Part shown: piece by piece, positions 760 through 63,915 of the stretch
Layout of the letters: each line of letters starts with the position of its first letter
Position numbering within the stretch: the stretch's first letter is position 1
Source: a virus
Reading direction: 5' to 3' (one strand)
DNA: 64,000 nucleotides
Virus record (IMG/VR): IMGVR_UViG_3300046616_000314
Coordinates: 286,616 to 350,615 of that record
Made by a program: the position numbers and the translations under genes
Notes under the pieces: generated by a model
What the model was told of the DNA's origin: nothing
Databases searched by the model: none
What the model saw: the letters and a program-made list of their open reading frames with translations, nothing else

Positions 760-1098
760 ATGACCCAGAACCCTTATGACCGCAATAATTTCCCCGGCAA
801 GTTCAAGACCAATTATATTGGTTTTGCTGACGGATTTTATTGCCTGCGTCTGAGCATGGATGCTGGTGAAGGTCTCGACGCCCTCATGTGGCAGATGGAA
901 GTCAGCGAATGGCTTTTCAACACGCTGGGCGGCAAGTGGCACATGGGGAACGATTTCCCCTACAAGGACCATCCGCAAATCAACCTGTCGGCTTGGTCGA
1001 AGAACGACTATTTCGTTCTGATCGAAAAATTTCATGAAGTCGTGCTGTTCGAAGATGCGTTCGTCGTCTCGGGTATTACCCCGTCGCAGTTGGTCTAA
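760..1098 (+). CDS. hypothetical protein
   Basis: 112 aa ORF; its stop overlaps the next start (ATGG). Confidence 0.4.
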   Translation: MTQNPYDRNNFPGKFKTNYIGFADGFYCLRLSMDAGEGLDALMWQMEVSEWLFNTLGGKWHMGNDFPYKDHPQINLSAWSKNDYFVLIEKFHEVVLFEDAFVVSGITPSQLV

Positions 1099-1385
1099 TG
1101 GCATATTGGCACGGTAAAGGCTATCGAATGACTTCGCACGATGAGCGGAAGTTGCTGCTTCAGCAATATCCGTTTGAGGGGTCGTGCCTACGGAAGAGTA
1201 AGGAAAATGATCTTCATTTCCTGGCGGGAACCGATCTTCTCGCCATCGTAGATTATTTGTCAGACCAAATGCCAAAAACAACGGAAGCAACTTGGACTTA
1301 TGACAAACTCAAGGATTGTCTGCGGTTCTCTACTGCTAAATTTCGTGACGAAACCGAGACCATCTTTAAATTGAAATTTGGTTGA
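1098..1385 (+). CDS. small protein of the C-terminal F[KR]LK[WFY] motif family
   Basis: Ends ...DETETIFKLKFG; it shares the acidic-then-FKLK[WF]G C-terminus with at least 15 other ORFs in the window. Confidence 0.45.
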   Translation: MAYWHGKGYRMTSHDERKLLLQQYPFEGSCLRKSKENDLHFLAGTDLLAIVDYLSDQMPKTTEATWTYDKLKDCLRFSTAKFRDETETIFKLKFG

Positions 1386-1405
1386 TCGTTTGATACAGTA
1401 GCTCA

Positions 1406-1735
1406 ATGAGCTACGAAATATCCGTTGACGACATTTACGACATGATTGGTGAAATCGAAGTCGAAGAACGGATGAAAGTCGGCTCCAATAAGGAAGCCTA
1501 TCGCGGCGTTTCTCATACCTTGATTGCCGCCATGCTGGCAGAGCGCAAGAGTATCAAGTTATCCCCTGAAGAAATAGCCGGATACGTAGCACTAGTTCAG
1601 TTGTCTATTCAGACGCTTTGGGAACACGGAAAACTGTTTCTTATTCGTCACAACTATCATCATCCTACGAATTATTATTCGTGCTATCCTACTGCAAAAT
1701 TTAAAGAAATATTTCGAAACTCCGATGGAACGTAA
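1406..1735 (+). CDS. hypothetical protein
   Basis: 109 aa ORF. Confidence 0.4.
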   Translation: MSYEISVDDIYDMIGEIEVEERMKVGSNKEAYRGVSHTLIAAMLAERKSIKLSPEEIAGYVALVQLSIQTLWEHGKLFLIRHNYHHPTNYYSCYPTAKFKEIFRNSDGT

Positions 1736-2024
1736 TCGTTTAGCCGTTATCATTCACGAACAAGTCTATGACCTTGAGGTTGCCGCGCGACTGATCGGTA
1801 AAGGCTACGACGGTGCCTCCAAGGAAGAAATTTACCAAGCAACGGTTAACGCTTGCGAAACGCAAAAAGCTGGTCGGTTCAACTCTATGGAATTCGATTT
1901 GGTGTTTAGAAAAATGTGTCGTTGCGATGATAGTCTTGCGCGCAACCTACATTATATGCTATCTACACGGGGACAGACTTTTTCGACCTTGGACCCAACC
2001 GAATTTACAAAGACCTTCAGATGA
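1725..2024 (+). CDS. hypothetical protein
   Basis: 99 aa ORF; overlaps its neighbours by a few nt in operon style. Confidence 0.4.
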   Translation: MERNRLAVIIHEQVYDLEVAARLIGKGYDGASKEEIYQATVNACETQKAGRFNSMEFDLVFRKMCRCDDSLARNLHYMLSTRGQTFSTLDPTEFTKTFR

Positions 2025-2821
2025 CCAATGAGATTGACGATAGCAAGCCCGATGAGCCGCACCCCACGATGGGTCCTGGCTGGTTCATCCGTTTTCCGAA
2101 GGATTGGAAGACCAAGCACGTCGATCTTCGGACCTATTATCTGATCGAGGATCAGCCCTGGTTCACCAAAGCTCCGACCACGATTTGTGATCTTCTAGGC
2201 TTCAAGATCGAACCGGGTAAGTTGAACAACCTGTTGTCGTTCGCCAATAGCGAACTGTCGTTCTGGTATTTCCTGACCTATGTCATTGGTGAACACGCCG
2301 ATGATGCAGAGACCACCAACGAAATCATCAACTTTATTCTTGGTTCCCTGGCGGGAGCCCTGAAGAACCCGCCGGGTGGGACGGGTATCGCTCTGGAATT
2401 CAAGGACATCAACAAGGTGATCCATGTCGGCGCCATTCGTGAGTACGCGAATGCGATTGCGCTGGGTATGGTCCCCAAGAGCATTCGCAAGGCTCTGGAC
2501 ATTCTGTTGATCACGGAATTCAACGCCACGCATTCGGTCACGGTTAGTCACACCGTTTCGGCTGAAGAAGCCACGCGCATCGTCCTATACGAAATGATCG
2601 CTGAGTTGACGGAAGAAATTCTGGCGCAACCGTCTGGTGAATCTATCGTGCCGATGTTCCTGAAGGTGCTTGAGGATAACCCCAAACAAGCTGATTTGCT
2701 GCGCGCTGAACCCGACAACCAAAAGCTGATCGGCTGGGCGATGGGTCAAATCATGCGCGCGAGCGTCGTGAAGCTTGATCCGAACTTTGTTCGTGGTGTG
2801 ATTATCGAGCAACTGAAGTGA
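2021..2821 (+). CDS. protein with C-terminal GatB/YqeY-like domain
   Basis: The C-terminus ...KLIGWAMGQIMRASVVKLDPNFVRGVIIEQLK resembles the GatB C-terminal/YqeY domain (pattern ...IGFLVGQVMKA..G.ANP..V.ELLKK.L). Confidence 0.5.
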   Translation: MTNEIDDSKPDEPHPTMGPGWFIRFPKDWKTKHVDLRTYYLIEDQPWFTKAPTTICDLLGFKIEPGKLNNLLSFANSELSFWYFLTYVIGEHADDAETTNEIINFILGSLAGALKNPPGGTGIALEFKDINKVIHVGAIREYANAIALGMVPKSIRKALDILLITEFNATHSVTVSHTVSAEEATRIVLYEMIAELTEEILAQPSGESIVPMFLKVLEDNPKQADLLRAEPDNQKLIGWAMGQIMRASVVKLDPNFVRGVIIEQLK

Positions 2822-2990
2822 GCATCTTCACCGACACGATCTCGGACGAGAGTACCGTAACGTATTTCGAACGTTTCTGGGATCGCGCCCGTGCTGTAGT
2901 GTGGTTCACTTTCCTAAGTCTAACGGTCCCGGTTGTCACCGTGTACCCGTGGTTCTTGGGAATGCGAGAAATATTGCATAAGGTTTTCGG

Positions 2991-3750: not shown

Positions 3751-3795
3751 TTATTTATCTCTTGAAATTTTCGTAATCCGTGCTATATTCGAGGG

Positions 3796-9390: not shown

Positions 9391-10578
9391 TTGACGCAAT
9401 TCGGAGACATCTTCATGGACACCCGCACGAAGTTCCTGATTCCTGAAGCGAACTATCCCAAGTTCGAAGCTCAGATCGCGAAGCTGTCGCGCAAGTCGAT
9501 GAAGCTGATCGGCGAAGAAATCATGCCGGTCGTCTTCGGCTACGAATACAAGCCCTTTTCGGAAGGCAGCAAGGAAACCTATAAGGTTTTCAACGTTCTG
9601 CTGACCGCCTCGACTCCGGTGCTGGACGGTTGGGAATTCGTCGCCCGCCTGGACCACACCAACGAAACCGGTACCATCGTCCGTACCGTGCCGACTTATC
9701 ACGGCGAAATCCCGACCAAGTATCGTGAATCGGTGGTCAAGTGCGATCACTGCAACGTGCAACGCTATCGCCGCGACACGTTCGTTCTGCGCAACGAACA
9801 AGGCGAATTTCAACAAGTCGGCTCGACTTGCCTGAAGGATTTCTTCGGTCACGACCCCTACAAGATCGCCAAGCTGGCTGAACTGCTGGGCTATGTGAAC
9901 GAATGCGCTCGCGCCGCTCAAGAGTGGGGTGAATTCACCCCCGCGAACCGTCGCTGGGTTGAACTGGTCCCGTTCCTGGCTTGCGCCGCTCAAGAAGTTC
10001 GCAAGAACGGTTGGGTTTCGCGCACGGTCGCCAAGGAAAAGGACATCAACGCTACGGCTGATTACGCCATCACCGACTATCTGGGCGGTGGTCGCTATCC
10101 TGAACAAGTCCCCACTCAAGCCGATTTCGATCTGGCTGAACAAGCTCTGGAATGGGCTCAATCGCTGTCGGCGAAGGAATACCTGAACGACTACGAAAAC
10201 AACCTGCTGGTGATCGCCAATGCCGAATGGATCGAATTCCGTTCGTGCGGTCTGGCGGCTTCCATCGTCGGTGTGTTCTTCATGAACCAAGAGCGCGCCA
10301 AGAAGGCGGCTGCTGGTCCGAGCAAGCACGTCGGCACGCTGGGCGAGCGCGTCACGGTTGAAGCCGTGGTGACGGGCAATTCGAGCCGCGAAAACAACTT
10401 CGGCGGGATCACCTACAACTATCGTTTCCTCTCGGGTGATGACGTGGTTGTCTGGTTCGCTTCGGTAAACTCCAACCTGTCGATTGGTGACAAGGTGAAG
10501 CTGACGGGCACTGTCAAGAAGCTCGACAACTTCAACGGCAAGAACCAAACCATCCTGACCCGTTGTAAGGTGGCGTAA
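9391..10578 (+). CDS. hypothetical protein
   Basis: 395 aa ORF with diverse composition; the overlapping minus-strand 391 aa ORF looks like an antisense artefact (R/V/L-rich). Confidence 0.55.
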   Translation: MTQFGDIFMDTRTKFLIPEANYPKFEAQIAKLSRKSMKLIGEEIMPVVFGYEYKPFSEGSKETYKVFNVLLTASTPVLDGWEFVARLDHTNETGTIVRTVPTYHGEIPTKYRESVVKCDHCNVQRYRRDTFVLRNEQGEFQQVGSTCLKDFFGHDPYKIAKLAELLGYVNECARAAQEWGEFTPANRRWVELVPFLACAAQEVRKNGWVSRTVAKEKDINATADYAITDYLGGGRYPEQVPTQADFDLAEQALEWAQSLSAKEYLNDYENNLLVIANAEWIEFRSCGLAASIVGVFFMNQERAKKAAAGPSKHVGTLGERVTVEAVVTGNSSRENNFGGITYNYRFLSGDDVVVWFASVNSNLSIGDKVKLTGTVKKLDNFNGKNQTILTRCKVA

Positions 10579-10988
10579 TGGATGTTGCCACCCTCAATCT
10601 TCTTGCCGATATGGTGGTTGCATCCTGTCGGGATAAGATTTTGACTTTTGATGTAACCGATAAGTCATTTGGTACATCATCGCTGCATACGACACACGAA
10701 TTCGTCGGAGCCGGAATCACTCTTGATGTTGTTTTGGAACGCAAGAGTGGTGCCCGCTATATCACGTTCACGGGCGAAGGCTGGAAAGTAAAAGTCTACG
10801 CCATGGACGCCATTTCCCGTGTTCGGTACAATACCGACGAAGCGTTGATCAATCGTAATTTCATATATTACAACGAAAATGAATATCTGACTTTTCGCAA
10901 GGCGGAAGTCCTCGGCGGCGATCCTAGCGAAGCCCTAACGACGCTTTTGCTGTTCAAACATAAATGGTTTGTGCAAGATGGATACTAA
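10578..10988 (+). CDS. small protein of the C-terminal F[KR]LKW motif family
   Basis: Ends ...PSEALTTLLLFKHKWFVQDGY. Confidence 0.5.
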   Translation: MDVATLNLLADMVVASCRDKILTFDVTDKSFGTSSLHTTHEFVGAGITLDVVLERKSGARYITFTGEGWKVKVYAMDAISRVRYNTDEALINRNFIYYNENEYLTFRKAEVLGGDPSEALTTLLLFKHKWFVQDGY

Positions 10989-11421
10989 CACGATAGAGCT
11001 TCTTCTTGATCTGGCATTGTATCTTCGTCAACGTCGCGATGATCACCGAGACACGCCCGAAGATTGGGAGCGTGCCCGTGGGCGCGTCCCTAAGATGCCA
11101 TCGTTCGTGGTCCCTGGAACCGAGATCAAAATCAATTACAAAGAACAGCCGCGCAAACATCGGGCACAAACTCCCGATATTATTCTCACATGCGGTAATC
11201 GTTGGTCCGTTCATTTTCAGCCCGTTCTTCTGACGGAAATTACTTCAAAGAACGCGGAGGGAGTTGTTTCGCGTAAGGCTGTCGTTCCGGGTGATGTCGT
11301 CGGAAGATGGACCCGGCATCTTTTCGCCGCACGCCCCGCAACTCGTGGCTGGGAAGCCCTACAAGAAGATTTGGTATACCTAGCGTTGTTCAAGAATCGG
11401 TGGGTGTTGCCCACGGAATAA
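10969..11421 (+). CDS. small protein of the C-terminal F[KR]LKW motif family
   Basis: Ends ...LQEDLVYLALFKNRWVLPTE. Confidence 0.5.
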   Translation: MCKMDTNTIELLLDLALYLRQRRDDHRDTPEDWERARGRVPKMPSFVVPGTEIKINYKEQPRKHRAQTPDIILTCGNRWSVHFQPVLLTEITSKNAEGVVSRKAVVPGDVVGRWTRHLFAARPATRGWEALQEDLVYLALFKNRWVLPTE

Positions 11422-11876
11422 ATTCCTGTTATATTACAATAGAATATGAGCATTGGATTGAGTGCGTGGAATTAGACAAGCTTGAGTTGCATGGGTCGAA
11501 CAAGCAAGAAATTCTTGCCTTGTTCAACGCCGTCTCGAATGAAGATAGCGATTGGCTTGTGACCAAGACCTATGCCCGAACGGTGCGTGACATCAGCGGA
11601 ACCAAGATTTACGTTCGGTGTAATTTCAACGCTCAGAACAAAGTGACAGAAGTTTCAATCGGTGGTGAGAATGGTTGGATGATGCGTTTCCAACTTCGTC
11701 TTCGTCCCACAGGTATGACCAAGGATTACATTAGAGCAAGTCTATGGTTGTGCGACGGCGAAGAGACGGGATTGGCGACTTATATTCTCTATGATCCGCT
11801 CTTGATGAGTCCCGGTGTGTTTCAAGAGGATATGGTAACGCTTCGGCTGTTCGCTACAAAATGGATGCCGCAATGA
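11307..11876 (+). CDS. small protein of the C-terminal F[KR]LKW motif family (start uncertain; possibly GTG at 11466)
   Basis: Ends ...FQEDMVTLRLFATKWMPQ; the annotated ATG overlaps the upstream gene by 115 nt. Confidence 0.4.
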   Translation: MDPASFRRTPRNSWLGSPTRRFGIPSVVQESVGVAHGINSCYITIEYEHWIECVELDKLELHGSNKQEILALFNAVSNEDSDWLVTKTYARTVRDISGTKIYVRCNFNAQNKVTEVSIGGENGWMMRFQLRLRPTGMTKDYIRASLWLCDGEETGLATYILYDPLLMSPGVFQEDMVTLRLFATKWMPQ

Positions 11877-17533: not shown

Positions 17534-19327
17534 CTAGTTCCGCCAGCGGTTCACGATGGGATAGCGACGATCCCGACCAAAAATCTTGCTTCCGATCTTA
17601 ACACCGGGAGCCGCTTGGCGACGCTTGTATTCAGCGTTATCCACAAGTTTGCGGATTTTCTGAACAACATCCAATCGAACTTCAAGTTCGACAACGATGT
17701 CAGCGACCGACAGTTCTTCTTCGATCATCGCCTTGAGGATCGAATCGAGAACCGGATAGGGCGGCAGGCTGTCTTCGTCCTTTTGATCGGGACGCAGTTC
17801 AGCCGAAGGCGGCTTCACGATGATCTCTTCGGGAACCACTTGAGTTGCCCGACCCAAGAAGCCAAATTCCGTCAGATATTTTTGCGGAATGGCATTGCGC
17901 CAGCGGCACAAGTCCCAAACCGTCGTCTTGTAGCAATCCTTGATCGGATTGAAGCCACCGCTCATGTCGCCGTAGAGGGTCGAGTAACCCACGCTGACTT
18001 CCGACTTGTTGCCGGTGGTCAGGAGGATATGACCCTCTTGGTTGGAGATCGCCATCAGGATAGTACCACGGGCACGCGCCTGGATATTTTCATCCGCAAC
18101 GCCTTCAAGCTCACGAAGACCAGCAGTCATACCCTTTTCGTACTGGGCACTGCTATAGGCAACGCGCAGCGAATTCACGACGTTCTCAATCGGGATGGTT
18201 CGCATTTGCGCACCAAGGCGATCAGCCCCGGCTTCTGCATCCGATAGCGAGTGATCCGAAGAGAATGCCGAAGGCAGGCGAACCAAGTGAACGTTCTCGG
18301 GACCGATGGCGTCACAGGCGACAGCCGCGACCAGACCGGAGTCCACCCCGCCGCTGTAGCCGAGAACCACTGACTTGAAGCCTTGCTTTAGAAGGTAGTC
18401 ACGGGTACCGAGCACGACAGCTTGATAGATTTCCTGTTCGTGTGGTGTAACGATCTTCGGATAAAGATGCAAGGGAGCCCGATTTTCCGGCGGCTTGATC
18501 CAGTGCGAGAACGAACCGTCATCGCGCACCGAGCCCACAATCGTAGTCGGAACGCCCGCGTCATTATATTCGAAATGGCGCGAACGGGTTTGCGGGTGGA
18601 ATTCGAAGGCGAACAAACCTTCTTTGAAATATGGCGCCGACTGATAGCCCTTGGCGTCGTAGTAGAACGATCCGCCGTCGAACACCAGTTCGTCTTGACC
18701 ACCGATCATGTTGACGTACAGGAACGGCAAGCCGGTTTCCTTGATGCGGTTGGCGATCACTTGGTGACGAGTGACATTCTTACCGGCTTCGAACGGTGAA
18801 CCGTTGATGCTCAGAAGGAACGTGGCGTCATTGTCCGACAGCGAACGGCTCACGCTGGGGAACCAGCAGTCTTCGCAGATCATCAGACCGATGCGTTGAC
18901 CCCGGAATTCGATGGGAAACGGTTCGGCGGTATTTGCTTCGAACACGCGCTTTTCATCGAACACACCGTAGTTCGGTAGTTCGGTCTTGTGGATCAGATC
19001 GACCTTCTTGAGAACCGGATCGATCAAGTACGCACTGTTGCGCGGTTTGACGTTGCCCTTCGTCGGCGTGCCGAAGATGATCCCGGCGTCCATGAAGCCG
19101 CCGCCCATGACAGCATCAATGATGCGTTGGTTGGCGCGTTCAACCGCGTCCATGAACGAATGGCGCGACACCAAGTCTTCGATGGGATAGCCGGTCACGG
19201 CGCACTCTGGGAAGACGACCAGATCAAAGCCCGATTTTGCGGCGTTCTCGTATTGGGCAATGATTTGATCCGCGTTGCCGACGATATCACCGACGACCGG
19301 GTTAAATTGAATGACAGCAATTCTCAT
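17534..19327 (-). CDS. nadE: glutamine-dependent NAD+ synthetase (nitrilase domain + NAD synthetase PP-loop domain)
   Basis: N-terminal CN-hydrolase signature (MRIAVIQFNPVVGD...LVVFPECAVTGYPIEDL...GLMICEDCWFP). C-terminal PP-loop (VVLGYSGGVDSGLVAAV). 597 aa is typical for Gln-dependent NadE; GAGGAA RBS. Confidence 0.85.
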   Translation of the reverse strand: MRIAVIQFNPVVGDIVGNADQIIAQYENAAKSGFDLVVFPECAVTGYPIEDLVSRHSFMDAVERANQRIIDAVMGGGFMDAGIIFGTPTKGNVKPRNSAYLIDPVLKKVDLIHKTELPNYGVFDEKRVFEANTAEPFPIEFRGQRIGLMICEDCWFPSVSRSLSDNDATFLLSINGSPFEAGKNVTRHQVIANRIKETGLPFLYVNMIGGQDELVFDGGSFYYDAKGYQSAPYFKEGLFAFEFHPQTRSRHFEYNDAGVPTTIVGSVRDDGSFSHWIKPPENRAPLHLYPKIVTPHEQEIYQAVVLGTRDYLLKQGFKSVVLGYSGGVDSGLVAAVACDAIGPENVHLVRLPSAFSSDHSLSDAEAGADRLGAQMRTIPIENVVNSLRVAYSSAQYEKGMTAGLRELEGVADENIQARARGTILMAISNQEGHILLTTGNKSEVSVGYSTLYGDMSGGFNPIKDCYKTTVWDLCRWRNAIPQKYLTEFGFLGRATQVVPEEIIVKPPSAELRPDQKDEDSLPPYPVLDSILKAMIEEELSVADIVVELEVRLDVVQKIRKLVDNAEYKRRQAAPGVKIGSKIFGRDRRYPIVNRWRN

Positions 19328-19329
19328 TT

Positions 19330-19671
19330 TTATTCCTCAATATCAACGGGAGTGATATGCCAAACCGAACGGCTCTGGGGTTTCACTCCGGTACGCATGG
19401 CGTCCATCACTTGACTGATATTACTGATTCCGCCAGTAATTTCAACAAAGCCAACGCCGACGATGTTTAGGGCAAGCGCATCCGCACCCGCCGTGATGTT
19501 TTGAACCTTGTCATTCTTAAGAATGATTTCAGTACAATCGACCAAGTTCTTGATGTTCTTGATCGCTTTCACGTGTCCAATTTTCAGAGCCACCTTGGCT
19601 GCATCATCTTCATTGTGGGCGAAGATGCTGCAACCAGAGTTGGCAGAATTGGTGATGCGGTAGATACGCAT
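19330..19671 (-). CDS. hypothetical protein within the NAD operon
   Basis: 113 aa ORF packed tightly between pncA and nadE. Confidence 0.45.
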   Translation of the reverse strand: MRIYRITNSANSGCSIFAHNEDDAAKVALKIGHVKAIKNIKNLVDCTEIILKNDKVQNITAGADALALNIVGVGFVEITGGISNISQVMDAMRTGVKPQSRSVWHITPVDIEE

Positions 19672-20316: not shown

Positions 20317-20328
20317 AATATTTTTTCC

Positions 20329-21663: not shown

Positions 21664-21668
21664 AATAA

Positions 21669-24594: not shown

Positions 24595-24900
24595 ATGAAA
24601 ATGACCGCTTCCGTCCGTCAGCCCGTCGTGTGGGTGAAATCCCCGGTGAAACAAGAAGAAGAAAACGCCCGATTGGCGCGTGAAAAATCTGCAATGATCG
24701 TCAAAGTGCAGGTTCCCTTCATTGAAGACGGCGAAGTGTCGGTGTATCGTGAAGGTCGAAAGGGTTTGAAGCACCAAGCCCTGACCGTCGAAGAACAAGC
24801 CATGCTGGGCGATGACCGCAAGGCGCATTTTAAGGCGTTATGGAACGTCGATGCCGTTCGATGGGATTTGCTGAAGCGGGTTAAGGACCAAGCGTGGTAA
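24595..24900 (+). CDS. hypothetical protein
   Basis: 101 aa ORF. Confidence 0.4.
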   Translation: MKMTASVRQPVVWVKSPVKQEEENARLAREKSAMIVKVQVPFIEDGEVSVYREGRKGLKHQALTVEEQAMLGDDRKAHFKALWNVDAVRWDLLKRVKDQAW

Positions 24901-25211
24901 CTTCCATTAAGTGGTATGCGCGGGTAAAAGAGACCTCTGGTGGAATTTTGAAAACGATTGACTGGGTTGAAGAAAATTGCCCCGGTTGGTCGTTTTTCGA
25001 TATTAAAAGCAAAGATGGTCCGCTACCTGAAATCAAAAGTATTTTGAGCTTGAGTGCGATAGATGCACCCGAGCGCAATATGGAATATGAAATCTATTTT
25101 GTTCAAGAAGAACATTTTGCGATATTTAAGCTATATAAGTCTGAAAGGATAATTGCATCTTCGACTGTTTGGGTAAGTAATATTCCCAATCTTTCGTGGG
25201 GACCAGAATAA
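24894..25211 (+). CDS. small protein, weak member of the F[KR]LK family
   Basis: Contains ...VQEEHFAIFKLYKSE. Confidence 0.35.
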   Translation: MVTSIKWYARVKETSGGILKTIDWVEENCPGWSFFDIKSKDGPLPEIKSILSLSAIDAPERNMEYEIYFVQEEHFAIFKLYKSERIIASSTVWVSNIPNLSWGPE

Positions 25212-25220: not shown

Positions 25221-25481
25221 ATGATTAAGATTGAGCTAGATGTTAAGAATTCCGACATGCGTTCATTGCATGTGTGGCTCGACGCCAATTGCATTGGTTG
25301 GTGCTATCAAGGTGCAGGAAACCGTTTGTCCAACGAGCTTTGGGCAAAGAAAATGAACAAAAACATCGGCGCCCGCCAGAACGATATGAAAATTATTTTT
25401 TATGTAAAAGTTATCGAGGACGTTGCGACGATTCGTTTAAAATACGGCGGCGTCCGCGTAATTTCCGTCGATATCAATTGA
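25221..25481 (+). CDS. small protein of the F[KR]LK[YW]GG family
   Basis: Ends ...IEDVATIRLKYGGVRVISVDIN. Confidence 0.4.
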   Translation: MIKIELDVKNSDMRSLHVWLDANCIGWCYQGAGNRLSNELWAKKMNKNIGARQNDMKIIFYVKVIEDVATIRLKYGGVRVISVDIN

Positions 25482-28808: not shown

Positions 28809-28883
28809 GCGGGTGTAGTTCAGTGGTAGAACATCAGTTTTCCAAACTGAGTGTCGCTGGTTCGATCCCAGTCACCCGCTCCA
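28809..28883 (+). tRNA. tRNA-Gly (anticodon UCC)
   Basis: Cloverleaf folded by hand: acceptor stem GCGGGTG/CACCCGC, D-arm GTTCAGTGGTAGAAC, anticodon stem TCAGT/ACTGA with loop TTTCCAA (anticodon TCC), T-arm GCTGG-TTCGATC-CCAGT, discriminator U, encoded CCA. Confidence 0.8.
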
Positions 28884-33944: not shown

Positions 33945-33945
33945 G

Positions 33946-34923
33946 ATGCGTGCAGTAATTTTTGACATTGATGGCACGCTAGCGAACTGCGATCACCGGT
34001 TGCACTATCTAGACAATGGTCGCAACTGGGATGGCTTCTTCGGTGATATGCATCTGGACACGCCGATTGAGGCGGTGGCTTGGCTTGCCCAATTCATCGC
34101 CTCAAACGCGCGTGCTGGCGCCTTTGACACCGATATGAAGGGCATCATGCGCGACGACCACGTTGCCGTGCTCGTTGTCACCGCGCGCCCCGATGACAAG
34201 GATTATCGCGCCGTCACTGAAAAGTGGCTGGCTGACCATGACATCGTGTACGATAAAATTTACATGCGTGCCGGTGGAGACTATCGCCCTGACCAAATCG
34301 TCAAGGGCGAAATCCTTCAGCAAATCCTTGAAGATGGCTACGATCCCTTCTTGGTGGTCGATGACCGTCCGCAAGTGGTGGATATGTGGCGTAGCTTCGG
34401 CATCACCACGTTCCAATGTGCGGCTGATGAGAGCAAGCGTTGCCGCCCCGAAGATCAAGGCAAGCTGCTTCTGACGATGCTGGTTGGTCCCGCGTGTGCG
34501 GGTAAGAGCACCTATTGCAAGAAACACTTCAAGGCGGATGACATCATTTCGACTGATGACATTCGGGTGCAACTGTACGGGGATCGTTCAAAAGGGCATA
34601 ATCCCGATGAGCTTGCGCGCACGTGGAAGTATGCTCACTCGCTGATCAAGGCACGGTTGGAGAATGGCGTATACACGGTTCTGGACGCCACGAACCTCAA
34701 GAAGAAAGATCGCCTCAAGGTTCTGGAATCGGTTCCTTCGGGCGTGTTGGTCGAGTACGTTGTGTTGGATCGCGATTATGATACGAAGATCGCGGAACGC
34801 GGTGTGCGCTCTGTTGAACTGATTGATAAACACCATAAAACGTTTAAAAGCCAAATCAAAGAAATCCTGAATGCAGACGGGATGGGCTTTGTGATGGTGA
34901 AGGACGCGAGAGAAAAGAAATGA
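33946..34923 (+). CDS. pnkp: polynucleotide kinase-phosphatase (N-terminal HAD 3'-phosphatase, C-terminal P-loop 5'-kinase)
   Basis: HAD motifs VIFDIDGTL (DxDGT), VLVVTARPD, K...VVDDRPQ, then Walker A LLTMLVGPACAGKST. Start taken at ATG 33946, immediately after the upstream stop. Confidence 0.7.
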   Translation: MRAVIFDIDGTLANCDHRLHYLDNGRNWDGFFGDMHLDTPIEAVAWLAQFIASNARAGAFDTDMKGIMRDDHVAVLVVTARPDDKDYRAVTEKWLADHDIVYDKIYMRAGGDYRPDQIVKGEILQQILEDGYDPFLVVDDRPQVVDMWRSFGITTFQCAADESKRCRPEDQGKLLLTMLVGPACAGKSTYCKKHFKADDIISTDDIRVQLYGDRSKGHNPDELARTWKYAHSLIKARLENGVYTVLDATNLKKKDRLKVLESVPSGVLVEYVVLDRDYDTKIAERGVRSVELIDKHHKTFKSQIKEILNADGMGFVMVKDAREKK

Positions 34924-35237
34924 AATATTATGCGTTGCCACTAAACGGAGAGTATGACACCCGACTGTCTTACGACCAATCGGGTTTGCAATCCGTTGAG
35001 TGGCGAGATTATGCGGGTCAGTTCACACTTGAACTGACTTTGACTGAATTTTTGAATCAATATCAAAGCATTGCTGGTTGGATGGACCGTAATGGTTTCA
35101 CCGATGCTGACTTTGATGCGATTCTAGAAGTGTCCGAGAACAACCGGAGCGAAACTTGCGTTCTGGTCGCCTTCTTGGATTCGGATCAACGTATGCTGTT
35201 CAAGATGAAGTACGGCGGCAATTTTTGGATGACTTAA
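34920..35237 (+). CDS. small protein of the F[KR][LM]K[YW]GG family
   Basis: Ends ...DSDQRMLFKMKYGGNFWMT. Confidence 0.5.
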   Translation: MKYYALPLNGEYDTRLSYDQSGLQSVEWRDYAGQFTLELTLTEFLNQYQSIAGWMDRNGFTDADFDAILEVSENNRSETCVLVAFLDSDQRMLFKMKYGGNFWMT

Positions 35238-36438: not shown

Positions 36439-37131
36439 ATGGTTGATATTCTTTTCCTTGCTAGAGAGTGGGCGTCGATTCATCGCGCCGAAGAAATCCG
36501 TCCGAGTTGGATGGAATTCTTCAGAATTTTGTGGGCATATTCAAGCAAGGGTCGTTTCTATCACACCCTTAAGCATCTAGAGCATGGCTTGCGCTTTATT
36601 GCGAACAACCATGCCAATGCCCGCGCAGTTCACATTGCCAAACTGGCATATTTTTATCATGACATCGTGTACAACGCCACGCGCGAGGATCACACGAACG
36701 AAGAAGATAGCGCAGAGGCGTTCATCGCCTATACACGCGCCGTTGGGTTCTCTTCGGATACCATCACGCATGGTGTCGCTCTGATTTACGCGACGAAGAA
36801 TCATTTCGCAGATCATTTCTCCAATCGTGCGGATGGCGGCTATTTGATTCAGTCGCTTTGGGCAATCATGAGCGACGCTGACCTGTGTATCCTGGCGTCA
36901 AACGAAGAAACCTATCTGGGCTATGCCACCAAAATTTGGCATGAGTATAAGATCGTTGGCGAAGAAAAATATATCGAAGGTCGCCTAAATTTCCTTCGCA
37001 AGGTCGCGGATAACAACGTCAAAATTTTCAAGACGCCTAAGATGATTGAGCATTTCGAACAGAAAGCTCACATGAATCTGGTGAATGAAATTTCACGCCT
37101 GACCGTGATCCCACATTCAATCATCAAATGA
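36439..37131 (+). CDS. HD-domain metal-dependent phosphohydrolase (predicted)
   Basis: FYHTLKHLEHGLRF ... AYFYHDIVYN (H...HD motif spacing). Confidence 0.45.
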   Translation: MVDILFLAREWASIHRAEEIRPSWMEFFRILWAYSSKGRFYHTLKHLEHGLRFIANNHANARAVHIAKLAYFYHDIVYNATREDHTNEEDSAEAFIAYTRAVGFSSDTITHGVALIYATKNHFADHFSNRADGGYLIQSLWAIMSDADLCILASNEETYLGYATKIWHEYKIVGEEKYIEGRLNFLRKVADNNVKIFKTPKMIEHFEQKAHMNLVNEISRLTVIPHSIIK

Positions 37132-37394
37132 GATACGGTGCGCCTGTCCCGAATGAGTATATTCAATATACTTGGGCGGATGATGATGAGCGATACTATC
37201 AAGGTATCGAAGATAAGGAACAGGTGAAGGAAGAACTTTACGATTGGTGCGATGACAATCTCGCTGATCCATACAAATTTTCTCTGGACCTAACGGGGTA
37301 CTACCCTGGTGGGGCAATGGTATGGAAGTTAGTCACCGATAACGAGGATGACGCCACGTTTTTCATGATGAAGTGGGGCGGGCTTAATCCTTAG
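37128..37394 (+). CDS. small protein of the F[KR][LM]KWGG family
   Basis: Ends ...DNEDDATFFMMKWGGLNP. Confidence 0.5.
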   Translation: MRYGAPVPNEYIQYTWADDDERYYQGIEDKEQVKEELYDWCDDNLADPYKFSLDLTGYYPGGAMVWKLVTDNEDDATFFMMKWGGLNP

Positions 37395-39208: not shown

Positions 39209-39734
39209 TAACGTAACACGCAAGGTCGATGCTTGGGGTCGAATTATTGTCGATTCCAGTGCTCTTGTTGATCTCATTTACGATGGCGTCGATATCACTA
39301 CTCTTCTCGTTGAGAGTAATGAAGAGACTGCTGCGTTCAATGATCTATGCAAGAAATTCGACAAAGCGGATAGCGTTCTCAGAACACCGGAACCGCTGGA
39401 CATTGATCCAGCGGATTTCCACGCCGAAAAATCGTCTACATGGGCTATATCCAAGGATATACAGGAACTAGACGTTCGGTCGCTATTGCTGTCTCTGTGC
39501 TCATCTGAGACGGCTACAGCACGTGTTAATATGGAAATGGATATGTTTGAAGAAAGAGGTTTGATCCCCTTGCTTCAACTCATGGTCTATCTGGTTGACC
39601 ATTTCAGACAGAATAAAATCGTGTGGGGCGTCGGGCGCGGTAGTTCGGTTTCGAGCTATTGCCTGTATCTGATCGGCGTCCACAAAATCGACAGCATCCA
39701 ATACGACTTGGATATCAACGATTTCTTGAAGTAG
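39180..39734 (+). CDS. hypothetical protein
   Basis: 184 aa ORF. Confidence 0.45.
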   Translation: MARPKIKMIDNVTRKVDAWGRIIVDSSALVDLIYDGVDITTLLVESNEETAAFNDLCKKFDKADSVLRTPEPLDIDPADFHAEKSSTWAISKDIQELDVRSLLLSLCSSETATARVNMEMDMFEERGLIPLLQLMVYLVDHFRQNKIVWGVGRGSSVSSYCLYLIGVHKIDSIQYDLDINDFLK

Positions 39735-40059
39735 CGTTTCTGACGCCAGCCAAGAGGCTGAACTTAGAACCACTGGCGCCTTGAATGATAGACCGGCGCA
39801 TTTTCTCAAATTCTGCCAGTTCTTCAAGGGACAGGACTTCGCCACCGAACTTGATTCGGAACACGGCTGCGTCCTCGGCATTCTCGAAATAATAATCCGA
39901 GAAGTAGGCGTGATGGTGGGCAGACCAATTGCCCTGGCGACCATTCGCCTTGATGAACTTGTAATAGGTGCCGCGTTCTGGACCGTTTTCGGTCCATTCC
40001 CGAGCAACCCGCACGATATGCGGAGCGGCGATATGCTTATAATCGACATACTTACCCAT
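39715..40059 (-). CDS. small protein of the F[KR][LI]K[FH]GG family
   Basis: ...GNWSAHHHAYFSDYYFENAEDAAVFRIKFGGEV; tandem paralog of the next gene. Confidence 0.5.
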   Translation of the reverse strand: MGKYVDYKHIAAPHIVRVAREWTENGPERGTYYKFIKANGRQGNWSAHHHAYFSDYYFENAEDAAVFRIKFGGEVLSLEELAEFEKMRRSIIQGASGSKFSLLAGVRNATSRNR

Positions 40060-40271
40060 TACGGAATTTCCTTAATGCGATTGCCACCATGCTTAAGAAT
40101 GAAGAAAGTAGCATCTTCTTCATTTTCGAAATAGAAATACGAATGCCTCCGATGGCGAATACACCAATTACCCGTAAGGTTAAGGTCTTTCATCACAATC
40201 GAAAGATCACGCCTCCCCAAATCAATGAGGAAGGCGTTCTTTAGTTTAGAGTGGAGAACGTGATCTCCCAT
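40059..40271 (-). CDS. small protein of the F[KR][LI]K[FH]GG family
   Basis: ...GNWCIRHRRHSYFYFENEEDATFFILKHGGNRI. Confidence 0.5.
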   Translation of the reverse strand: MGDHVLHSKLKNAFLIDLGRRDLSIVMKDLNLTGNWCIRHRRHSYFYFENEEDATFFILKHGGNRIKEIP

Positions 40272-40882
40272 TAGTCTTCCGTCTTCGGAGCGTGCATGGC
40301 GCGAACCAGACGCATTTGATTCTTCAAGCTATGCTTGATGATTTCGTACGCGCGTTCCTGTTGCGGAAAGTTGCGTCGAGCTTGCTTCAGCATCGGAATG
40401 ATATTTTCTTCCGCGAAATCGACATAGCTCAATTGCTTCGCTGGGGTGAACACGCCGACCATGGACGAGAAATTGTGATCGCGATCAATGCCCTTGTCGA
40501 GGCTGGCGATAGGGTCATTGCTCATGCTGATGAACAATTCCTTCTCGTCGCGCTTCACACCGCGATATTCCTTCGTCATGTTCCACACGGCGTTACCGGT
40601 CAGGTCGCCGAAGCGAGCGCGAAGGGTGGCGGGATCAACGTCGTAATCCTCGCTCACGTCGTGCAGGAGAGCCGTGCTGATGGTTTCTTCCGGGTGCATC
40701 AGATCGGGCAGAGCCCGCGCCAGATGCGCGATGCTGACCTGATGTTCGAATTCGGGCGTCACGCCATCCTTGCGAAAGCCGGTGTGCAGCGATTCGGCGA
40801 AATCCATGGCTTCCAGAGCCTTGTTGAAGCCCCGACCCAGGAGCCAATACCGAAGTGCAATACGGCGTTTTTCGAAGGACAT
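40271..40882 (-). CDS. small alarmone hydrolase (SpoT/RelA-type HD domain, (p)ppGpp hydrolase)
   Basis: HQVSIAHLARAL...ISTALLHDVSEDYDV matches the SpoT/Mesh1 HD motif ...H...Hpl.VA..L...ALLHDv.ED; single-domain, 203 aa. Confidence 0.7.
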   Translation of the reverse strand: MSFEKRRIALRYWLLGRGFNKALEAMDFAESLHTGFRKDGVTPEFEHQVSIAHLARALPDLMHPEETISTALLHDVSEDYDVDPATLRARFGDLTGNAVWNMTKEYRGVKRDEKELFISMSNDPIASLDKGIDRDHNFSSMVGVFTPAKQLSYVDFAEENIIPMLKQARRNFPQQERAYEIIKHSLKNQMRLVRAMHAPKTED

Positions 40883-48171: not shown

Positions 48172-48411
48172 ATGCCTTTGTATATGGACCCGCTTGAAAT
48201 GGAAATTCCGATGGAATACGTCGAATTTCCATCTGGTGATCTGAAACGTGAGCTAGTGCATTGGTGTAAAGCAAATCTCGGAACGTGTTATCACTTTGAA
48301 GAAACCGAAGCCGACAAATGGAAATTTGTTACTTTGGATGTCGAAGAAATGGCATTGTTTAAATTGAAGTGGTCCAGACAAACAAAAACGGCGGGGTTTC
48401 CCCCGCCGTAA
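48172..48411 (+). CDS. small protein of the FKLKW family
   Basis: ...HFEETEADKWKFVTLDVEEMALFKLKWSRQ. Confidence 0.5.
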   Translation: MPLYMDPLEMEIPMEYVEFPSGDLKRELVHWCKANLGTCYHFEETEADKWKFVTLDVEEMALFKLKWSRQTKTAGFPPP

Positions 48412-58840: not shown

Positions 58841-59058
58841 GGATCACTGATCGTCAAGAGCTAGGTCAATTCTTGAAAGAATATGCAGTCGGTACAAAGA
58901 AATTGATTTTAGATATTCATGAAATCATGTGGTACATGCGCGGTTCGGTTTCGCGAGAAGAAGCATGGACACTATGCTTTGAAGAACGCGAAGCTATTAA
59001 AGAAATGATCGCGGAGAAAGTCAAAAACGTAGAGAAATCGGGACTACCGATCCTATGA
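58837..59058 (+). CDS. hypothetical protein
   Basis: 73 aa ORF. Confidence 0.4.
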   Translation: MRITDRQELGQFLKEYAVGTKKLILDIHEIMWYMRGSVSREEAWTLCFEEREAIKEMIAEKVKNVEKSGLPIL

Positions 59059-59381
59059 GCGAGTTTTCCGAAACTTGTACGTTCTTCGGTGTTCGTGCTT
59101 TGAACGAAGTGAATTACTTTGTGCTTCGCATGATCGCCGAAGATCATTCCCGCCCGGCGTGGCTGAACGGCAAGCACAAGCTTGAACTGTTGCCACGCTG
59201 GAATGAAGCCGTTCGCGGAACTGGCAACCTTTATCCAACCCAAAGCGTCGCGGGATACAAAGTCGCCCGGCGTTTGTTATGGCTTGTCGAGAATTTACAG
59301 GGTGGATGGTGTTTAGACGTAGCCGGTATTCATTTCGAAACCGATGACGATCTCGTACACTTCAGACTGAAATTTAGCTAG
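59055..59381 (+). CDS. small protein of the F[KR]LKF family
   Basis: ...GIHFETDDDLVHFRLKFS. Confidence 0.5.
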   Translation: MSEFSETCTFFGVRALNEVNYFVLRMIAEDHSRPAWLNGKHKLELLPRWNEAVRGTGNLYPTQSVAGYKVARRLLWLVENLQGGWCLDVAGIHFETDDDLVHFRLKFS

Positions 59382-59601: not shown

Positions 59602-59966
59602 TTCAAGTCCTCGATATATTGCCCCGCGAGGTTATCGTTCCGGCGGACATGCAACAAAGTCAGACGCGGAAGCCGCGCTTTGACTTGATCGAAACAAGCC
59701 TTGTAGGTCTTCAGTTCCGGGGCGTTGACCTTCCACTTCCCAAGAGCTTGCTGAATGACCAGATTCGAGTCACCGAGGATGGTGATGTCTTGGTCTTTAT
59801 AGTGATCAGCTAGTTCGACCGCCGCCAGGAAAGCAATCCATTCAGCTTCGTTGTTTGTGCCGTCATGAATGCGTTGGTGAAAGCGCACGGACCCGCATTC
59901 GGAAACCACCGCGATTTCCATCTTGCCAGGGTTCGGCTTACATCCACCATCGAAATAAATTTTCAT
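59598..59966 (-). CDS. rnh: ribonuclease H (RNase HI type)
   Basis: MKIYFDGGC (first Asp), TNNEAEW (Glu), ILGDSNLV (Asp), RRNDNLAGQ (Asp); start taken at the internal ATG 59966, which abuts the upstream stop. Confidence 0.8.
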   Translation of the reverse strand: MKIYFDGGCKPNPGKMEIAVVSECGSVRFHQRIHDGTNNEAEWIAFLAAVELADHYKDQDITILGDSNLVIQQALGKWKVNAPELKTYKACFDQVKARLPRLTLLHVRRNDNLAGQYIEDLN

Positions 59967-60307
59967 TTCATACGCCACAAACACTCCGACCAGCGGAGCA
60001 AAAACAAAGGAATAATTTCCGTATCGGTAAAGAATATCACATTTGAGCCGTAACCCCAACCGTGAACTTCGGTATGTTCCAACGATAAATCAGCGGGATC
60101 ATCCGACGACAGCCACATGGGTTCCCCGTGTTCTTTCGTCATCCAATCTATAATGCGTTGAGTAGTTTCCGAACGGAAGAACAGATTGCCATCCGCAATT
60201 TGGAAGGCATAGAGGATCGGAAACTTTGGGTTGTTGCTGTCGAACTGCGCGACGTGACAAGAATACGTCTTCATCAGTCGTCTCGGAACGAAACGAAATC
60301 TGACCAC
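59963..60307 (-). CDS. small protein of the F[KR]L[KR]W family
   Basis: ...FFTDTEIIPLFLLRWSECLWRMK. Confidence 0.45.
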   Translation of the reverse strand: MVRFRFVPRRLMKTYSCHVAQFDSNNPKFPILYAFQIADGNLFFRSETTQRIIDWMTKEHGEPMWLSSDDPADLSLEHTEVHGWGYGSNVIFFTDTEIIPLFLLRWSECLWRMK

Positions 60308-60540
60308 CGTAACTTGAACTGCACAAACTGTTCATGATTAGGGAAATAGAGGATAGTTCCCGTACGAGCCCATTGGGTAGGAACAGCATCATCCGGTTTC
60401 AGCCCGTGCAAAATTGCGGGAGCACCGAACGTCGTGGTCATCCACTTTATAATATCACAGAAGTAATCAGTAGGTATTAGCCCACCATCTTTGTCCAAGA
60501 TGCTGGCAATCACCGGACCATCTTCTAAGATCATCATCAT
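60274..60540 (-). CDS. small protein of the FKLRW family
   Basis: ...YFPNHEQFVQFKLRWSDF. Confidence 0.5.
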   Translation of the reverse strand: MMMILEDGPVIASILDKDGGLIPTDYFCDIIKWMTTTFGAPAILHGLKPDDAVPTQWARTGTILYFPNHEQFVQFKLRWSDFVSFRDD

Positions 60541-61943: not shown

Positions 61944-61957
61944 GAAAAGAATAGACT

Positions 61958-62347
61958 ATGTTAGATTGTGGTATGGTTTTTAATCCGATCACCGCTACGA
62001 ACAAATCTAATAAGATGAAGAAACGCAACCGGCGAAATGTCGGAACTGCGACCAAGCATCGTAAGAAAGAACGTCCCGAGGGCGTAACTTTCAACTATGA
62101 GATCGTTCTTCAACGGGCTTCAAACCCCAATTACAGCTACCAGGGCTCGCCGAAAGAGATCGAGCGACGTAGGATGGTGGATGCCGTGATCGCCGCGACT
62201 AAGCGGATGCCGCAATTCAAAGTCATTGAAAATCCCAGTTATCGTTGGGCGATGACAACTAAGCTCTATGTTATGTCGGAAGACGAAGTGATCTTCCTGA
62301 CGCTCATGGCAAAGGATGTGATTTTCCGCGTCTACAAATATTCTTAG
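61958..62347 (+). CDS. hypothetical protein
   Basis: 129 aa with a basic N-terminus. Confidence 0.4.
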   Translation: MLDCGMVFNPITATNKSNKMKKRNRRNVGTATKHRKKERPEGVTFNYEIVLQRASNPNYSYQGSPKEIERRRMVDAVIAATKRMPQFKVIENPSYRWAMTTKLYVMSEDEVIFLTLMAKDVIFRVYKYS

Positions 62348-62643
62348 TAGATGCCGTACTTGAGCCGCATCAGACAAGCGGCTTCAATCGTTTTGAATTT
62401 GAGCGTAGTTTTGTCGTACGACCGAAGACCGAGGGTTGGTAAATCCCCGTCTAAATTATCTTCCATCCATTTTGTTACTTCCGGTGTGAACTGTGTAATT
62501 TGTTTCCCGGTACCATCCCTATAATCATTGTATAGAATATCGTGCGAAACAACGACCATTCGCATTCCGAATTCAGGGTCTTTCAAATTTTTGGCAAGTT
62601 TAGCCAGGATTTCCGTCACAGCCGCGTCCATATCTAAAGCCAT
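62344..62643 (-). CDS. small protein of the [MF][KR]LKYG family
   Basis: ...KFKTIEAACLMRLKYGIY. Confidence 0.45.
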   Translation of the reverse strand: MALDMDAAVTEILAKLAKNLKDPEFGMRMVVVSHDILYNDYRDGTGKQITQFTPEVTKWMEDNLDGDLPTLGLRSYDKTTLKFKTIEAACLMRLKYGIY

Positions 62644-63002
62644 TTGAGTTTGAACATCGTTAGGTCTTCTTCCGTGGCGAAGACGACTTGGCTGTAACCG
62701 GTGTACGGATATTTCGATGCACCACTATGGCAGCGGACAGGATGCATTTCCACGTCATTCTTTTCGCACCATTCATCAATGTCGCCTCTAAGGCGCATGG
62801 TGGACATCGGGTCTGCCAAATCGAATTGACTTATGACAAACGCATACGGAACCCGGATGACCAACGGTAATTGCTCACCCCGGCGGGCTTGCAATCGAAT
62901 TTCGTTTAGGTCGCCCGGTTGGATTATCATCGGAAATAAGTCGAGATTGCGTTGATCGCCATGCGCAACGCACTGAGGTTCAGCAGCAGGAAGCCAGACC
63001 AA
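62634..63002 (-). CDS. small protein of the FKLKW family
   Basis: ...VVFATEEDLTMFKLKWL. Confidence 0.5.
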   Translation of the reverse strand: MVWLPAAEPQCVAHGDQRNLDLFPMIIQPGDLNEIRLQARRGEQLPLVIRVPYAFVISQFDLADPMSTMRLRGDIDEWCEKNDVEMHPVRCHSGASKYPYTGYSQVVFATEEDLTMFKLKWL

Positions 63003-63119
63003 AACATGATGGTCTGAGTCATGATTTCCTTGGGATCGAGATCGGGAAGCTTATCCAGAATCTTACCAGCCATGACAAAGGCTGTCGCCAGGGCAAGAAA
63101 TCCCGCAACGGTCCAGATG

Positions 63120-63509
63120 CTAATCATCTTTTTTATTATACCAGTAATGAACCGAGCCGTTGGCATCCTTGTAGGATTTCTCGTAATCAATACTGATTAC
63201 CTTAGCGAGCCAAGGTGTAATGATTCGATAGTGCTGGGGATGACGTTCTTGATCCATCGTATAGGAAGACATTTTTATAGCCTTCACTGTACGCTTGCCC
63301 GTGGGGGTTTCATACAAATCCCAACGCCACATGACGCCGCTACTAGTTTCACCAAGTACCGTATGCTTAAACACAGGAGTACGTGCATAAATCGCGTCAG
63401 CCTTCAACGCCCGCTTGGCTTCTCGCCAGCGGAAGAATTCGACATACCAACGGACTAAGAAAAAACTCTTGTCCTCGATTTTAGTCAGAGTAGTCATGTA
63501 ACCTATCAT
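63120..63509 (-). CDS. hypothetical protein
   Basis: 129 aa ORF. Confidence 0.4.
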   Translation of the reverse strand: MIGYMTTLTKIEDKSFFLVRWYVEFFRWREAKRALKADAIYARTPVFKHTVLGETSSGVMWRWDLYETPTGKRTVKAIKMSSYTMDQERHPQHYRIITPWLAKVISIDYEKSYKDANGSVHYWYNKKDD

Positions 63510-63915
63510 GCCACTTCATTTTGTAGAGCACAAGATTTTCTTCAGTGTTAAACATAATAAATGCAGGCGGAAGCTTAAACCCGTGGTTCGCCTTGAAGGT
63601 GTCAAATTCGGTGCTATCTGGGAAAGCGATCAAGTCCCAATTGAACTTTCCGACCGTCTCATCAAGCCATTTCTTGATTGACGAGCCGCCTACCGAAAAA
63701 TGCCATTCATCGGTCCAGCCGTAATAGACTTGGATGTTGTCGGGCGTGGGAGCACGCCATTCTGACCACACATGCCCAATCGTGGCTCCGCTATGGGGCG
63801 GATTGCTACTAGTGCCCGGTTGCCCCCATCGATAGCTTGAGGGATGGATCATGTAGCCTTTATCAATCGGTCCCATGAATTTAGAAGTGGCTACGTTCAA
63901 TATCACGTTTGCCAC
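63481..63915 (-). CDS. small protein of the [FY]K[LM]KW family
   Basis: ...FIMFNTEENLVLYKMKWHDRLHDYSD. Confidence 0.5.
   Translation of the reverse strand: MANVILNVATSKFMGPIDKGYMIHPSSYRWGQPGTSSNPPHSGATIGHVWSEWRAPTPDNIQVYYGWTDEWHFSVGGSSIKKWLDETVGKFNWDLIAFPDSTEFDTFKANHGFKLPPAFIMFNTEENLVLYKMKWHDRLHDYSD

Follow-up and report, generated by a model that had tools for sequence, protein, structure and literature searches.

A divergent family of small phage proteins with a predicted beta-alpha-beta-beta-alpha domain in a T4-related jumbo phage and its relatives

A large stock of small, fast-evolving accessory proteins is a familiar feature of large phages. Among the rhizobial T4-like jumbo phages Phosso, Atu_ph07 and AP-J-162, the genome papers of the latter two counted most open reading frames (ORFs) of this kind as ORFans or as unique, and a paralogous family goes unmentioned in them. 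The 'hypothetical' or 'unique' ORFs of these phages include actual homologues (49 in Phosso and five in Atu_ph07) of the family described here, which itself appears to be undescribed and uncurated. The starting point was a stretch of 64,000 nucleotides (nt), positions 286,616 to 350,615 of the IMG/VR virus record IMGVR_UViG_3300046616_000314, hereafter called the window, whose own coordinates are used throughout. It belongs to a metagenomic contig of 561,116 bp, and an identical sequence was assembled from run SRR26076614. An original prediction, made by reading the translated ORFs, had claimed that at least 16 small proteins of the window share a C-terminal motif of acidic residues followed by F[KR]LKW[GS]. 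Our comparisons of protein sequences indicate that this motif almost certainly marks a genuine homologous family of small phage proteins. The number of members had to be revised: 12 of the 16 listed ORFs were confirmed, those at 1098, 10578, 10969/10978 and 11307/11466 were not supported by hidden Markov models (HMMs) built from external homologues, and one further ORF (24894..25211) was added, giving 13 members in the window. Two more copies lie 5-6 kb past its end. The 13 members and one borderline candidate are given below, with E values for the 86-sequence external HMM and, where a second value stands, for the 187-sequence one; aa denotes amino acids, P numbers label proteins retrieved in the database searches, and JGI stands for the Joint Genome Institute.

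24894..25211, + strand: member of 105 aa with a GTG start, absent from the original list; E 1.1e-6 and 1.2e-6; carries IDWVEENCPGW ... EIYFVQEEHFAIFKL; in tandem with 25221; recovered in all leave-one-out runs and called as a gene by JGI (P0004)
25221..25481, + strand: member of 86 aa; E 1.6e-5 and 1.5e-3; carries VWLDANCIGW ... IIFYVKVIEDVATIRLKYGG; reached by jackhmmer from 40059 at 1.7e-11; leave-one-out on the first alignment failed
34920..35237, + strand: member of 105 aa; E 1.5e-4 and 9.7e-4; its start shares 4 nt with the stop of the upstream PNKP-like gene
37128..37394, + strand: member of 88 aa; E 2.8e-11; structure model 1
39715..40059, - strand: member of 114 aa; E 4.1e-7; mutual best hit (54% identity over 33 aa, E 2e-6) and tandem partner of 40059; domain in mid-protein, followed by a C-terminal tail of ~40 aa
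40059..40271, - strand: member of 70 aa; E 4e-9; immediately follows the HD_4 hydrolase gene 40271..40882, which it overlaps by 1 nt
48172..48411, + strand: member, ORF of 79 aa (75 aa from 48184 according to JGI); E 4.3e-10; structure model 2; adjoins the 3' end of the major capsid gene, which is on the opposite strand
59055..59381, + strand: member of 108 aa, the domain being the last ~45 residues; E 2e-5 and 8e-6
59963..60274, - strand: member of 103 aa according to JGI (P0002), mechanical ORF to 60307; E 3.1e-7; in tandem with 60274..60540 (jackhmmer E for the pair 1.7e-37)
60274..60540, - strand: member of 87-88 aa (P0001); E 2e-9
62344..62643, - strand: member of 99 aa; E 2.6e-4 and 1.6e-3; in tandem with 62634; leave-one-out E 3.2e-5, rank 1
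62634..62930, - strand: member of 98 aa as called (P0013), mechanical ORF to 63002; E 1.4e-9
63481..63876, - strand: member of 131 aa as called (P0010), mechanical ORF to 63915; E 1.4e-7 and 1.9e-5; long N-terminal extension
760..1098, + strand: possible degenerate member of 112 aa, borderline; E 0.46 and 0.063; carries EVSEWLFNTLGGKW ... YFVLIEKFHEVVLFEDAF; outscores every decoy with the 187-sequence HMM, yet is not significant

As shown, some members form tandem pairs, as had been noticed from the translations (24894/25221, 39715/40059, 59963/60274 and 62344/62634). The motif was sighted at the positions reported for it, and all 16 listed ORFs translate as quoted. A regular expression for the motif with at least two upstream acidic residues matched 9 of 102 called genes, against 0.85 +/- 0.88 matches, and never more than 5, when the sequences were shuffled 1000 times; of the 474 ORFs not called as genes, 2 matched. 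The motif is therefore commoner than chance in the shuffled-sequence control that had been proposed for it. Within the window, BLASTP paired 39715 with 40059 at 4e-6, 40059 with 37128 at 8e-4, 37128 with 48172 at 5e-4 over 77 aa, 60274 with 59963 at 3e-4, and 62634 with 63481 at 0.02. These links were widened by jackhmmer, which recruited none of the reversed or shuffled decoys. When each candidate was left out in turn, the domain HMM ranked 11 of the 13 first or second in a set of about 2800 sequences that contained the decoys, and it was in these runs that the unlisted ORF 24894..25211 turned up repeatedly. The HMM of 86 external homologues recovered 13 window ORFs at E values from 2.8e-11 to 2.6e-4, the best decoy scoring 0.23, and that of 187 sequences recovered the identical 13 (8e-10 to 1.6e-3), no decoy scoring better than 1.5. 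Neither HMM contains any window sequence, yet their sequences were retrieved by means of the window's own profile, so that the independence of this test is only partial. Alignment, HMM construction and database searching, as suggested with the original prediction, thus retrieved a homologous family and set the window ORFs apart from decoys, and the agreement between external-only and leave-one-out HMMs upholds the claim of a true paralogous family of small phage proteins.

The listed ORFs that failed membership fall into two groups. ORF 1098..1385 (+) was rejected with an E value of 3.2 in both external HMMs, which is in the decoy range, and a leave-one-out rank of 8; its likeness to the family is confined to the last ~18 residues (hhalign probability 40%, 18 columns). 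The other group is the following.

10578..10988, 10978..11421 and 11466..11876, + strand: trio of tandem paralogues of ~136-147 aa, coordinates from gene calls

This trio was also rejected, having no HMM match at E<=10 and an hhalign probability against the family of 5% over 12 columns. Its proteins show weak mutual similarity (E ~1e-3), and their last helix, QEDLVxLxLFKxKW, resembles the final helix of the main family, with which ~12 C-terminal residues are common. The trio is a separate small family, whose helix likeness to the main one may reflect either distant homology or convergence.

The homologous unit extends beyond a C-terminal tail and is a whole domain of ~55-60 aa, including an upstream tryptophan helix. 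Its signature consists of a helix with W-C-x-x-N (xxIxxW-C-xx-N-x-G), an aromatic strand, F-x-F, and N-E-E-D-A-x-x-F-K-L-R-W. In 202 aligned family sequences, the first helix conserves W at 98%, C at 62%, N at 54% and G at 44%, the aromatic position is W, Y or F in 96%, and the strand has F or I followed by F in 92%. The final helix starts with N/D, E, E, D (69%) and A (70%), and continues with F (96%), K/R (75%), L (90%), K/R (78%) and W/F/Y (99%), its terminal aromatic residue usually standing 0-3 residues short of the C-terminus. The upstream G[NQ]W...H block that had been seen in several members corresponds to the nearly invariant tryptophan helix (W in 98% of 190 aligned sequences). The typical family protein is small, single-domain and of 55-130 aa; the loop from the first helix to the F-x-F strand is widely variable in length, and N-terminal extensions range from none to ~80 residues, with no recognisable domains found in those of the members. 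The description of a C-terminal element fused to diversifying heads has therefore to be replaced by that of a whole beta-alpha-beta-beta-alpha domain with variable N-terminal extensions.

This order of elements comes from AlphaFold models of two members, which were built with different alignments. The product of 37128 (predicted local distance difference test, pLDDT, 69; predicted template modelling score, pTM, 0.59) was modelled with strand 10-15, helix 28-44, strand 49-54, strand 65-70 and helix 73-83, and the product of 48172 (pLDDT 71) with strand 15-20, helix 24-35, strand 41-45, strand 49-54 and helix 57-74. Both agree, at moderate confidence, on the order beta1-alpha1-beta2-beta3-alpha2, so that the unrelated folds which would have spoken against a family were not obtained in the two members modelled. 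The predicted fold would be a generic ferredoxin- or RRM-like two-layer sandwich, assigned with moderate confidence, without the usual fourth strand, for which the proteins, ending at the second helix, would leave no room. Four external proteins (P0014, P0016, P0047 and P0072) are two-domain versions whose linker has a conserved 'EPAF' motif, and these natural fusions suggest that the domain works as a dimer or pseudo-dimer.

The family is not limited to the window. An exhaustive HMMER search with a 52-position window profile against 1.84 billion representative proteins (E<1e-3) gave 136 matches which, a few repetitive false positives aside, are proteins of 47-200 aa with a C-terminal domain, some of them two-domain. 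The source databases label these homologues hypothetical, and their genomic contexts are phage contigs carrying phage genes. A word-index protein search with the window profile returned self matches only, and tblastn searches of 50,697 phage records, with external homologues as well as window members as queries, returned almost nothing except one weak match in Phosso, which thereby became the lead to cultured relatives. As anticipated from the sequence, no named domain covers the family. Pfam gave no consistent family among the 86 homologues and the 10 of 13 window members scanned; PHROGs v4 matched 0 of 86 homologues at E<=0.001 and the window members only by scattered matches at E 0.02-0.08; NCBIfam gave three unrelated single-member matches at E>0.002 and no consistent family; PADLOC matched 0 of 13 window members; and BFVD returned solely uncharacterised phage proteins at E>=0.013. 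The literature search found no description of the motif, of a paralogue family in Atu_ph07 or AP-J-162, or of RRM-like phage small proteins.

Related loci in IMG/VR were sought with a motif-rich subset of the alignment, the 86-sequence set being too divergent for this search, and 256 stretches match DA[MTA]xF[KR]L[RKT]W. In cellular genomes, represented by one each for 185,579 bacterial and archaeal species, 21 stretches match [ED]DA[MTA]xF[KR]L[RKT]W, a pattern one residue stricter than that used for IMG/VR, and a single locus among them was confirmed as a relative, on a contig of a metagenome-assembled genome with four tandem copies. To judge from these searches, the family hardly occurs outside viruses. 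In unrelated viral contigs it forms tandem arrays of 4-13 copies, as follows.

L010 (IMG/VR): array of 13 consecutive genes of 53-79 aa in 3 kb
L017 (IMG/VR): array of 9 copies
L014 (IMG/VR): array of 7 copies
L005: array of 7 copies
L002: array of 4 copies; the sister contigs L003 and L004 also have an AmoC gene

The two sister contigs (ENA contigs of 129 kb and 40 kb) carry family members together with the gene of ammonia monooxygenase subunit C (AmoC), and the family may therefore reach viruses of ammonia oxidisers.

Among cultured phages, the 469-kb Sinorhizobium jumbo phage Phosso (PV764938.1, 735 annotated features) has 49 family ORFs at E<=0.01 and 39 at 1e-3, the best shuffled decoy scoring 0.73. 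The copies cluster at 0-25, 75-125, 325-375 and 400-425 kb, and those checked against the annotation tables are labelled hypothetical. Atu_ph07 (MF403008.1) has five copies, of which the top-scoring ORF (347322-347651, - strand, E 1e-6) is not annotated as a coding sequence (CDS). Two hypothetical genes have been annotated across it, a sign that this locus may be mis-annotated.

With so many unrelated viral contigs and these two cultured phages carrying the family, it cannot be called a lineage-specific expansion, as had been proposed. Best pairwise identities among copies are ~27-40%, which is very divergent. In the window, mutual best hits occur only in tandem pairs (39715/40059, 59963/60274 and the pair past the window end), and most members have their closest relative in other genomes, at 27-38% identity, a comparison biased by the fact that the external set was fetched with the window's own profile. 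In the L010 array, by contrast, 11 of the 13 copies have their nearest relative within the array. The pattern of relationships is that of an old family, shared by many phages, in which tandem duplication has come in local bursts.

As to what these proteins do, we propose, as a tentative reading that we regard as possible rather than probable, that the proteins serve host takeover or anti-defence as non-enzymatic binding scaffolds whose surfaces have diversified. The scaffold would be stable, with a conserved aromatic core, and the variation would fall on its surfaces and on the loops alpha1-beta2 and beta2-beta3. During infection every paralogue would have a partner of its own, probably a host protein or a defence or toxin effector, and the copies of one genome would together form a panel that inhibits or modulates such partners. 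Interaction or dimerisation would probably take place at the three-stranded sheet, through its free edge and its open face, an idea with which the natural two-domain fusions fit. The conserved positions are mostly those of an aromatic and aliphatic core and few are polar (the C, N and D quoted above and K/R at two positions), and no catalytic family of Pfam or NCBIfam was matched among the 86 homologues; the domain therefore looks non-enzymatic. Members are mostly acidic, with a median isoelectric point (pI) of ~5.3 and about a quarter of them basic, and the acidity of most makes protein binding a better fit than nucleic-acid binding. High copy numbers, restriction to phages, variable loops and a free sheet face together argue for a binding scaffold with distinct partners. 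Neighbours of the counter-defence type are also present in the window, namely RNA ligase and PNKP, a Macro domain, an HD_4 hydrolase and a nicotinamide adenine dinucleotide (NAD) salvage cluster. Several points weigh against this proposal: no homologue of known function backs a role of any kind; the structure models reach no more than moderate confidence and the fold matches are non-specific; the promoter scan of the window was uninformative; the members stand in mixed operons beside structural as well as metabolic genes, a context that fails to single out an anti-defence role; and, since about a quarter of the members are basic, one uniform function may not hold.

Other explanations have to be weighed against it. 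One of them, that the motif arose by chance or composition without a homologous family, could appeal to the high degeneracy of the listed expression and to the 4 of 16 examples that fail the homology tests. It is refuted for the 13 core members, which shuffled and reversed sequences, leave-one-out runs and external profiles part from noise by several orders of magnitude, and its overall probability is close to nil. A homologous family could still be largely neutral, a small and easily folded domain duplicated by recombination in hyperplastic regions with little or no current function. Extreme divergence, the scarcity of conserved polar residues, the evident local duplications and a copy number so unlike between relatives (49 in Phosso against 5 in Atu_ph07) would suit such a history. 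The ORFs are nevertheless intact, tightly packed and translationally coupled, their core signature is retained across phages that otherwise share little, and positive coding scores and independent gene calls support their expression as proteins, all of which makes neutrality improbable. A role in the virion or its assembly, as internal or ejected head proteins, decoration proteins or assembly chaperones, seems more improbable still. Several window copies do flank structural genes (capsid, portal, baseplate), and several jumbo phages have conserved ~120-aa proteins in which a segment of the Pfam Gp23 capsid family precedes the family domain. Most copies, however, lie in non-structural regions, including 15 in the tRNA-rich first 25 kb of Phosso, and none of the four annotated Atu_ph07 members (the 232nd, 255th, 258th and 313th CDS by order) is in the list of 131 proteins found in Atu_ph07 virions by electrospray ionisation tandem mass spectrometry (PMC6102473, Table S5), a weak test in which ~0.7 would be expected by chance. 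Matches of these members to the virion proteome by molecular weight were coincidental and were dropped after mapping by CDS order. The Gp23-segment proteins are Phosso 113926-114303, P0193, P0199, P0207 and P0217, and also P0129. In the P0193 group, which includes the Phosso protein, it is the C-terminal part of the major capsid protein that the initial ~50 residues are similar to, and in P0129 the segment is instead like the capsid N-terminal region. What appeared to be a fusion to Gp23 is a conserved separate protein in relatives, and the window has no such gene.

The remaining alternative, which we consider unlikely though the least so of these, is that the proteins are RRM-like nucleic-acid-binding regulators, which would hold messenger or transfer RNA (tRNA) on the sheet face and thereby tune translation or RNA stability. 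The predicted fold and the tRNA-rich neighbourhoods in Phosso speak for it. On the other side, the best profile match in the Protein Data Bank (PDB), UPF3, was not significant (E 0.12-0.3), no Pfam RRM model was found on the 86 homologues or the 10 window members scanned, and the fourth strand is absent from the predicted fold. The column conservation shows no RNP1/RNP2 signature, beta3 being F/I-x-F without the K/R-G-F/Y-G/A-F/Y context and beta1 being unconserved, and most members are acidic. Moreover, UPF3-type and U2AF-homology motif (UHM)-type RRMs are themselves protein binders. The binding scaffold thus stays our preferred, if tentative, proposal. A bolder extension of it, which we find doubtful, is that this phage mini-domain is a hypervariable binder scaffold forming a polyvalent inhibitor library against host defence or toxin effectors, as a viral counterpart of bacterial poly-immunity loci. 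On this reading a phage would carry tens of copies, as many as 13 of them in one tandem array, and in a jumbo phage they would make up as much as ~7% of all genes. Should the copies turn out to be inhibitors with a specific target each, the arrays would offer a ready-made list of proteins that bind host systems. Whatever the function, dozens of ORFans per genome, each reported as 'unique', collapse into one widespread uncurated family, whose definition would annotate many metagenomic proteins; Phosso on Sinorhizobium meliloti and Atu_ph07 on Agrobacterium tumefaciens C58 are tractable cultured systems for its study.

The genomic setting of the members is that of a T4-related phage. Structural gene calls in the window include a T4-type portal, an S77 prohead protease, a T4-type baseplate protein and a gp23-like capsid gene, and the major capsid gene has 76.5% nucleotide identity with that of Phosso. 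RNase H, RNA ligase and PNKP, a Macro domain, an HD_4 hydrolase, a thymidine kinase and a Ros/MucR protein were also called. The source is a T4-related jumbo phage. Where the call of the preceding gene was reliable, translational coupling to it was seen in nine members, the gap being -10 to +1 nt; these preceding genes are diverse and include those for PNKP and the HD_4 hydrolase, a small one after the baseplate gene, and other family members. The scan of the window for sigma-70 promoters and terminators equalled the shuffled expectation (25 sigma-70 sites against 23.6 expected), and the T4 late-promoter motif TATAAATA occurs three times in the window, in no case adjoining a member. The promoter scan was thus uninformative on the suggested clustering in early regions with sigma70-like promoters; the members stand in mixed operons, and no recognisable early region holds them all. 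Other features of the window are the following.

17534-22760, - strand: four adjacent NAD synthesis and salvage genes, encoding NAD synthetase (CN_hydrolase and NAD_synthase), an isochorismatase/nicotinamidase-like protein, nicotinate phosphoribosyltransferase and Nudix
22921-23475, - strand: gene of a Ros/MucR-family transcription regulator
25857-26375, + strand: gene of a Macro-domain protein, downstream of the 24894/25221 pair
28809-28883, + strand: single tRNA-Gly(TCC), in contrast to the dozens of tRNAs encoded by Phosso
29243-31285, - strand: ORF of 680 aa with a He_PIG domain (Pfam, from a Logan gene call)
32928-34923, + strand: RNA ligase followed by a PNKP-like kinase/phosphatase (HAD_PNKP and AAA_33), a T4-style tRNA repair pair
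40271-40882, - strand: HD_4 (RelA/SpoT-type hydrolase) gene, upstream of the 40059/39715 pair

The NAD gene block could counter NAD-depleting host defences, and similar NAD genes are also present in Phosso and Atu_ph07. The 680-aa ORF was passed over by the codon-usage model, so its composition may be atypical and its acquisition recent.

When compared with known systems, the predicted order beta1-alpha1-beta2-beta3-alpha2 is identical to that of RRM-like and ferredoxin-like domains such as the UPF3 RRM-like domain, U2AF-homology motifs and ACT. RRM-like domains and the family are also alike in that beta3 is rich in aromatic residues and leads to an acidic N-cap and a 'DA' with which alpha2 opens. 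With ACT and other ferredoxin-like ligand-binding domains, no specific structural or sequence match beyond the fold class was found. In another respect the family is like the small accessory proteins of phages (anti-CRISPRs, other anti-defence proteins, and the host-takeover modules of T4 hyperplastic regions or SPO1), which are likewise small, phage-specific and fast-evolving, lack enzymatic signatures and lie in accessory regions, often clustered. It differs from them in showing no homology to a curated phage family, PHROGs included, and from typical anti-defence genes in its far higher number of copies per genome (tens) and length of arrays (up to 13). A third comparison is with the SUKH and Imm immunity arrays of polymorphic toxins, from which the family is set apart by the lack of a consistent match to any Pfam model, immunity-protein families included, by its location in phage genomes (one locus in the 185,579 cellular species genomes), and by the lack of adjacent toxin genes in the contexts inspected. 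Those bacterial arrays (Zhang/Aravind, PMC3113570; PMC3482391) consist, as do the arrays described here, of many divergent paralogues of one small alpha+beta scaffold in head-to-tail order, the core being conserved and the surfaces variable. By analogy, this likeness suggests that the phage arrays share the logic of the SUKH and Imm loci, that of a panel of binders against varied targets.

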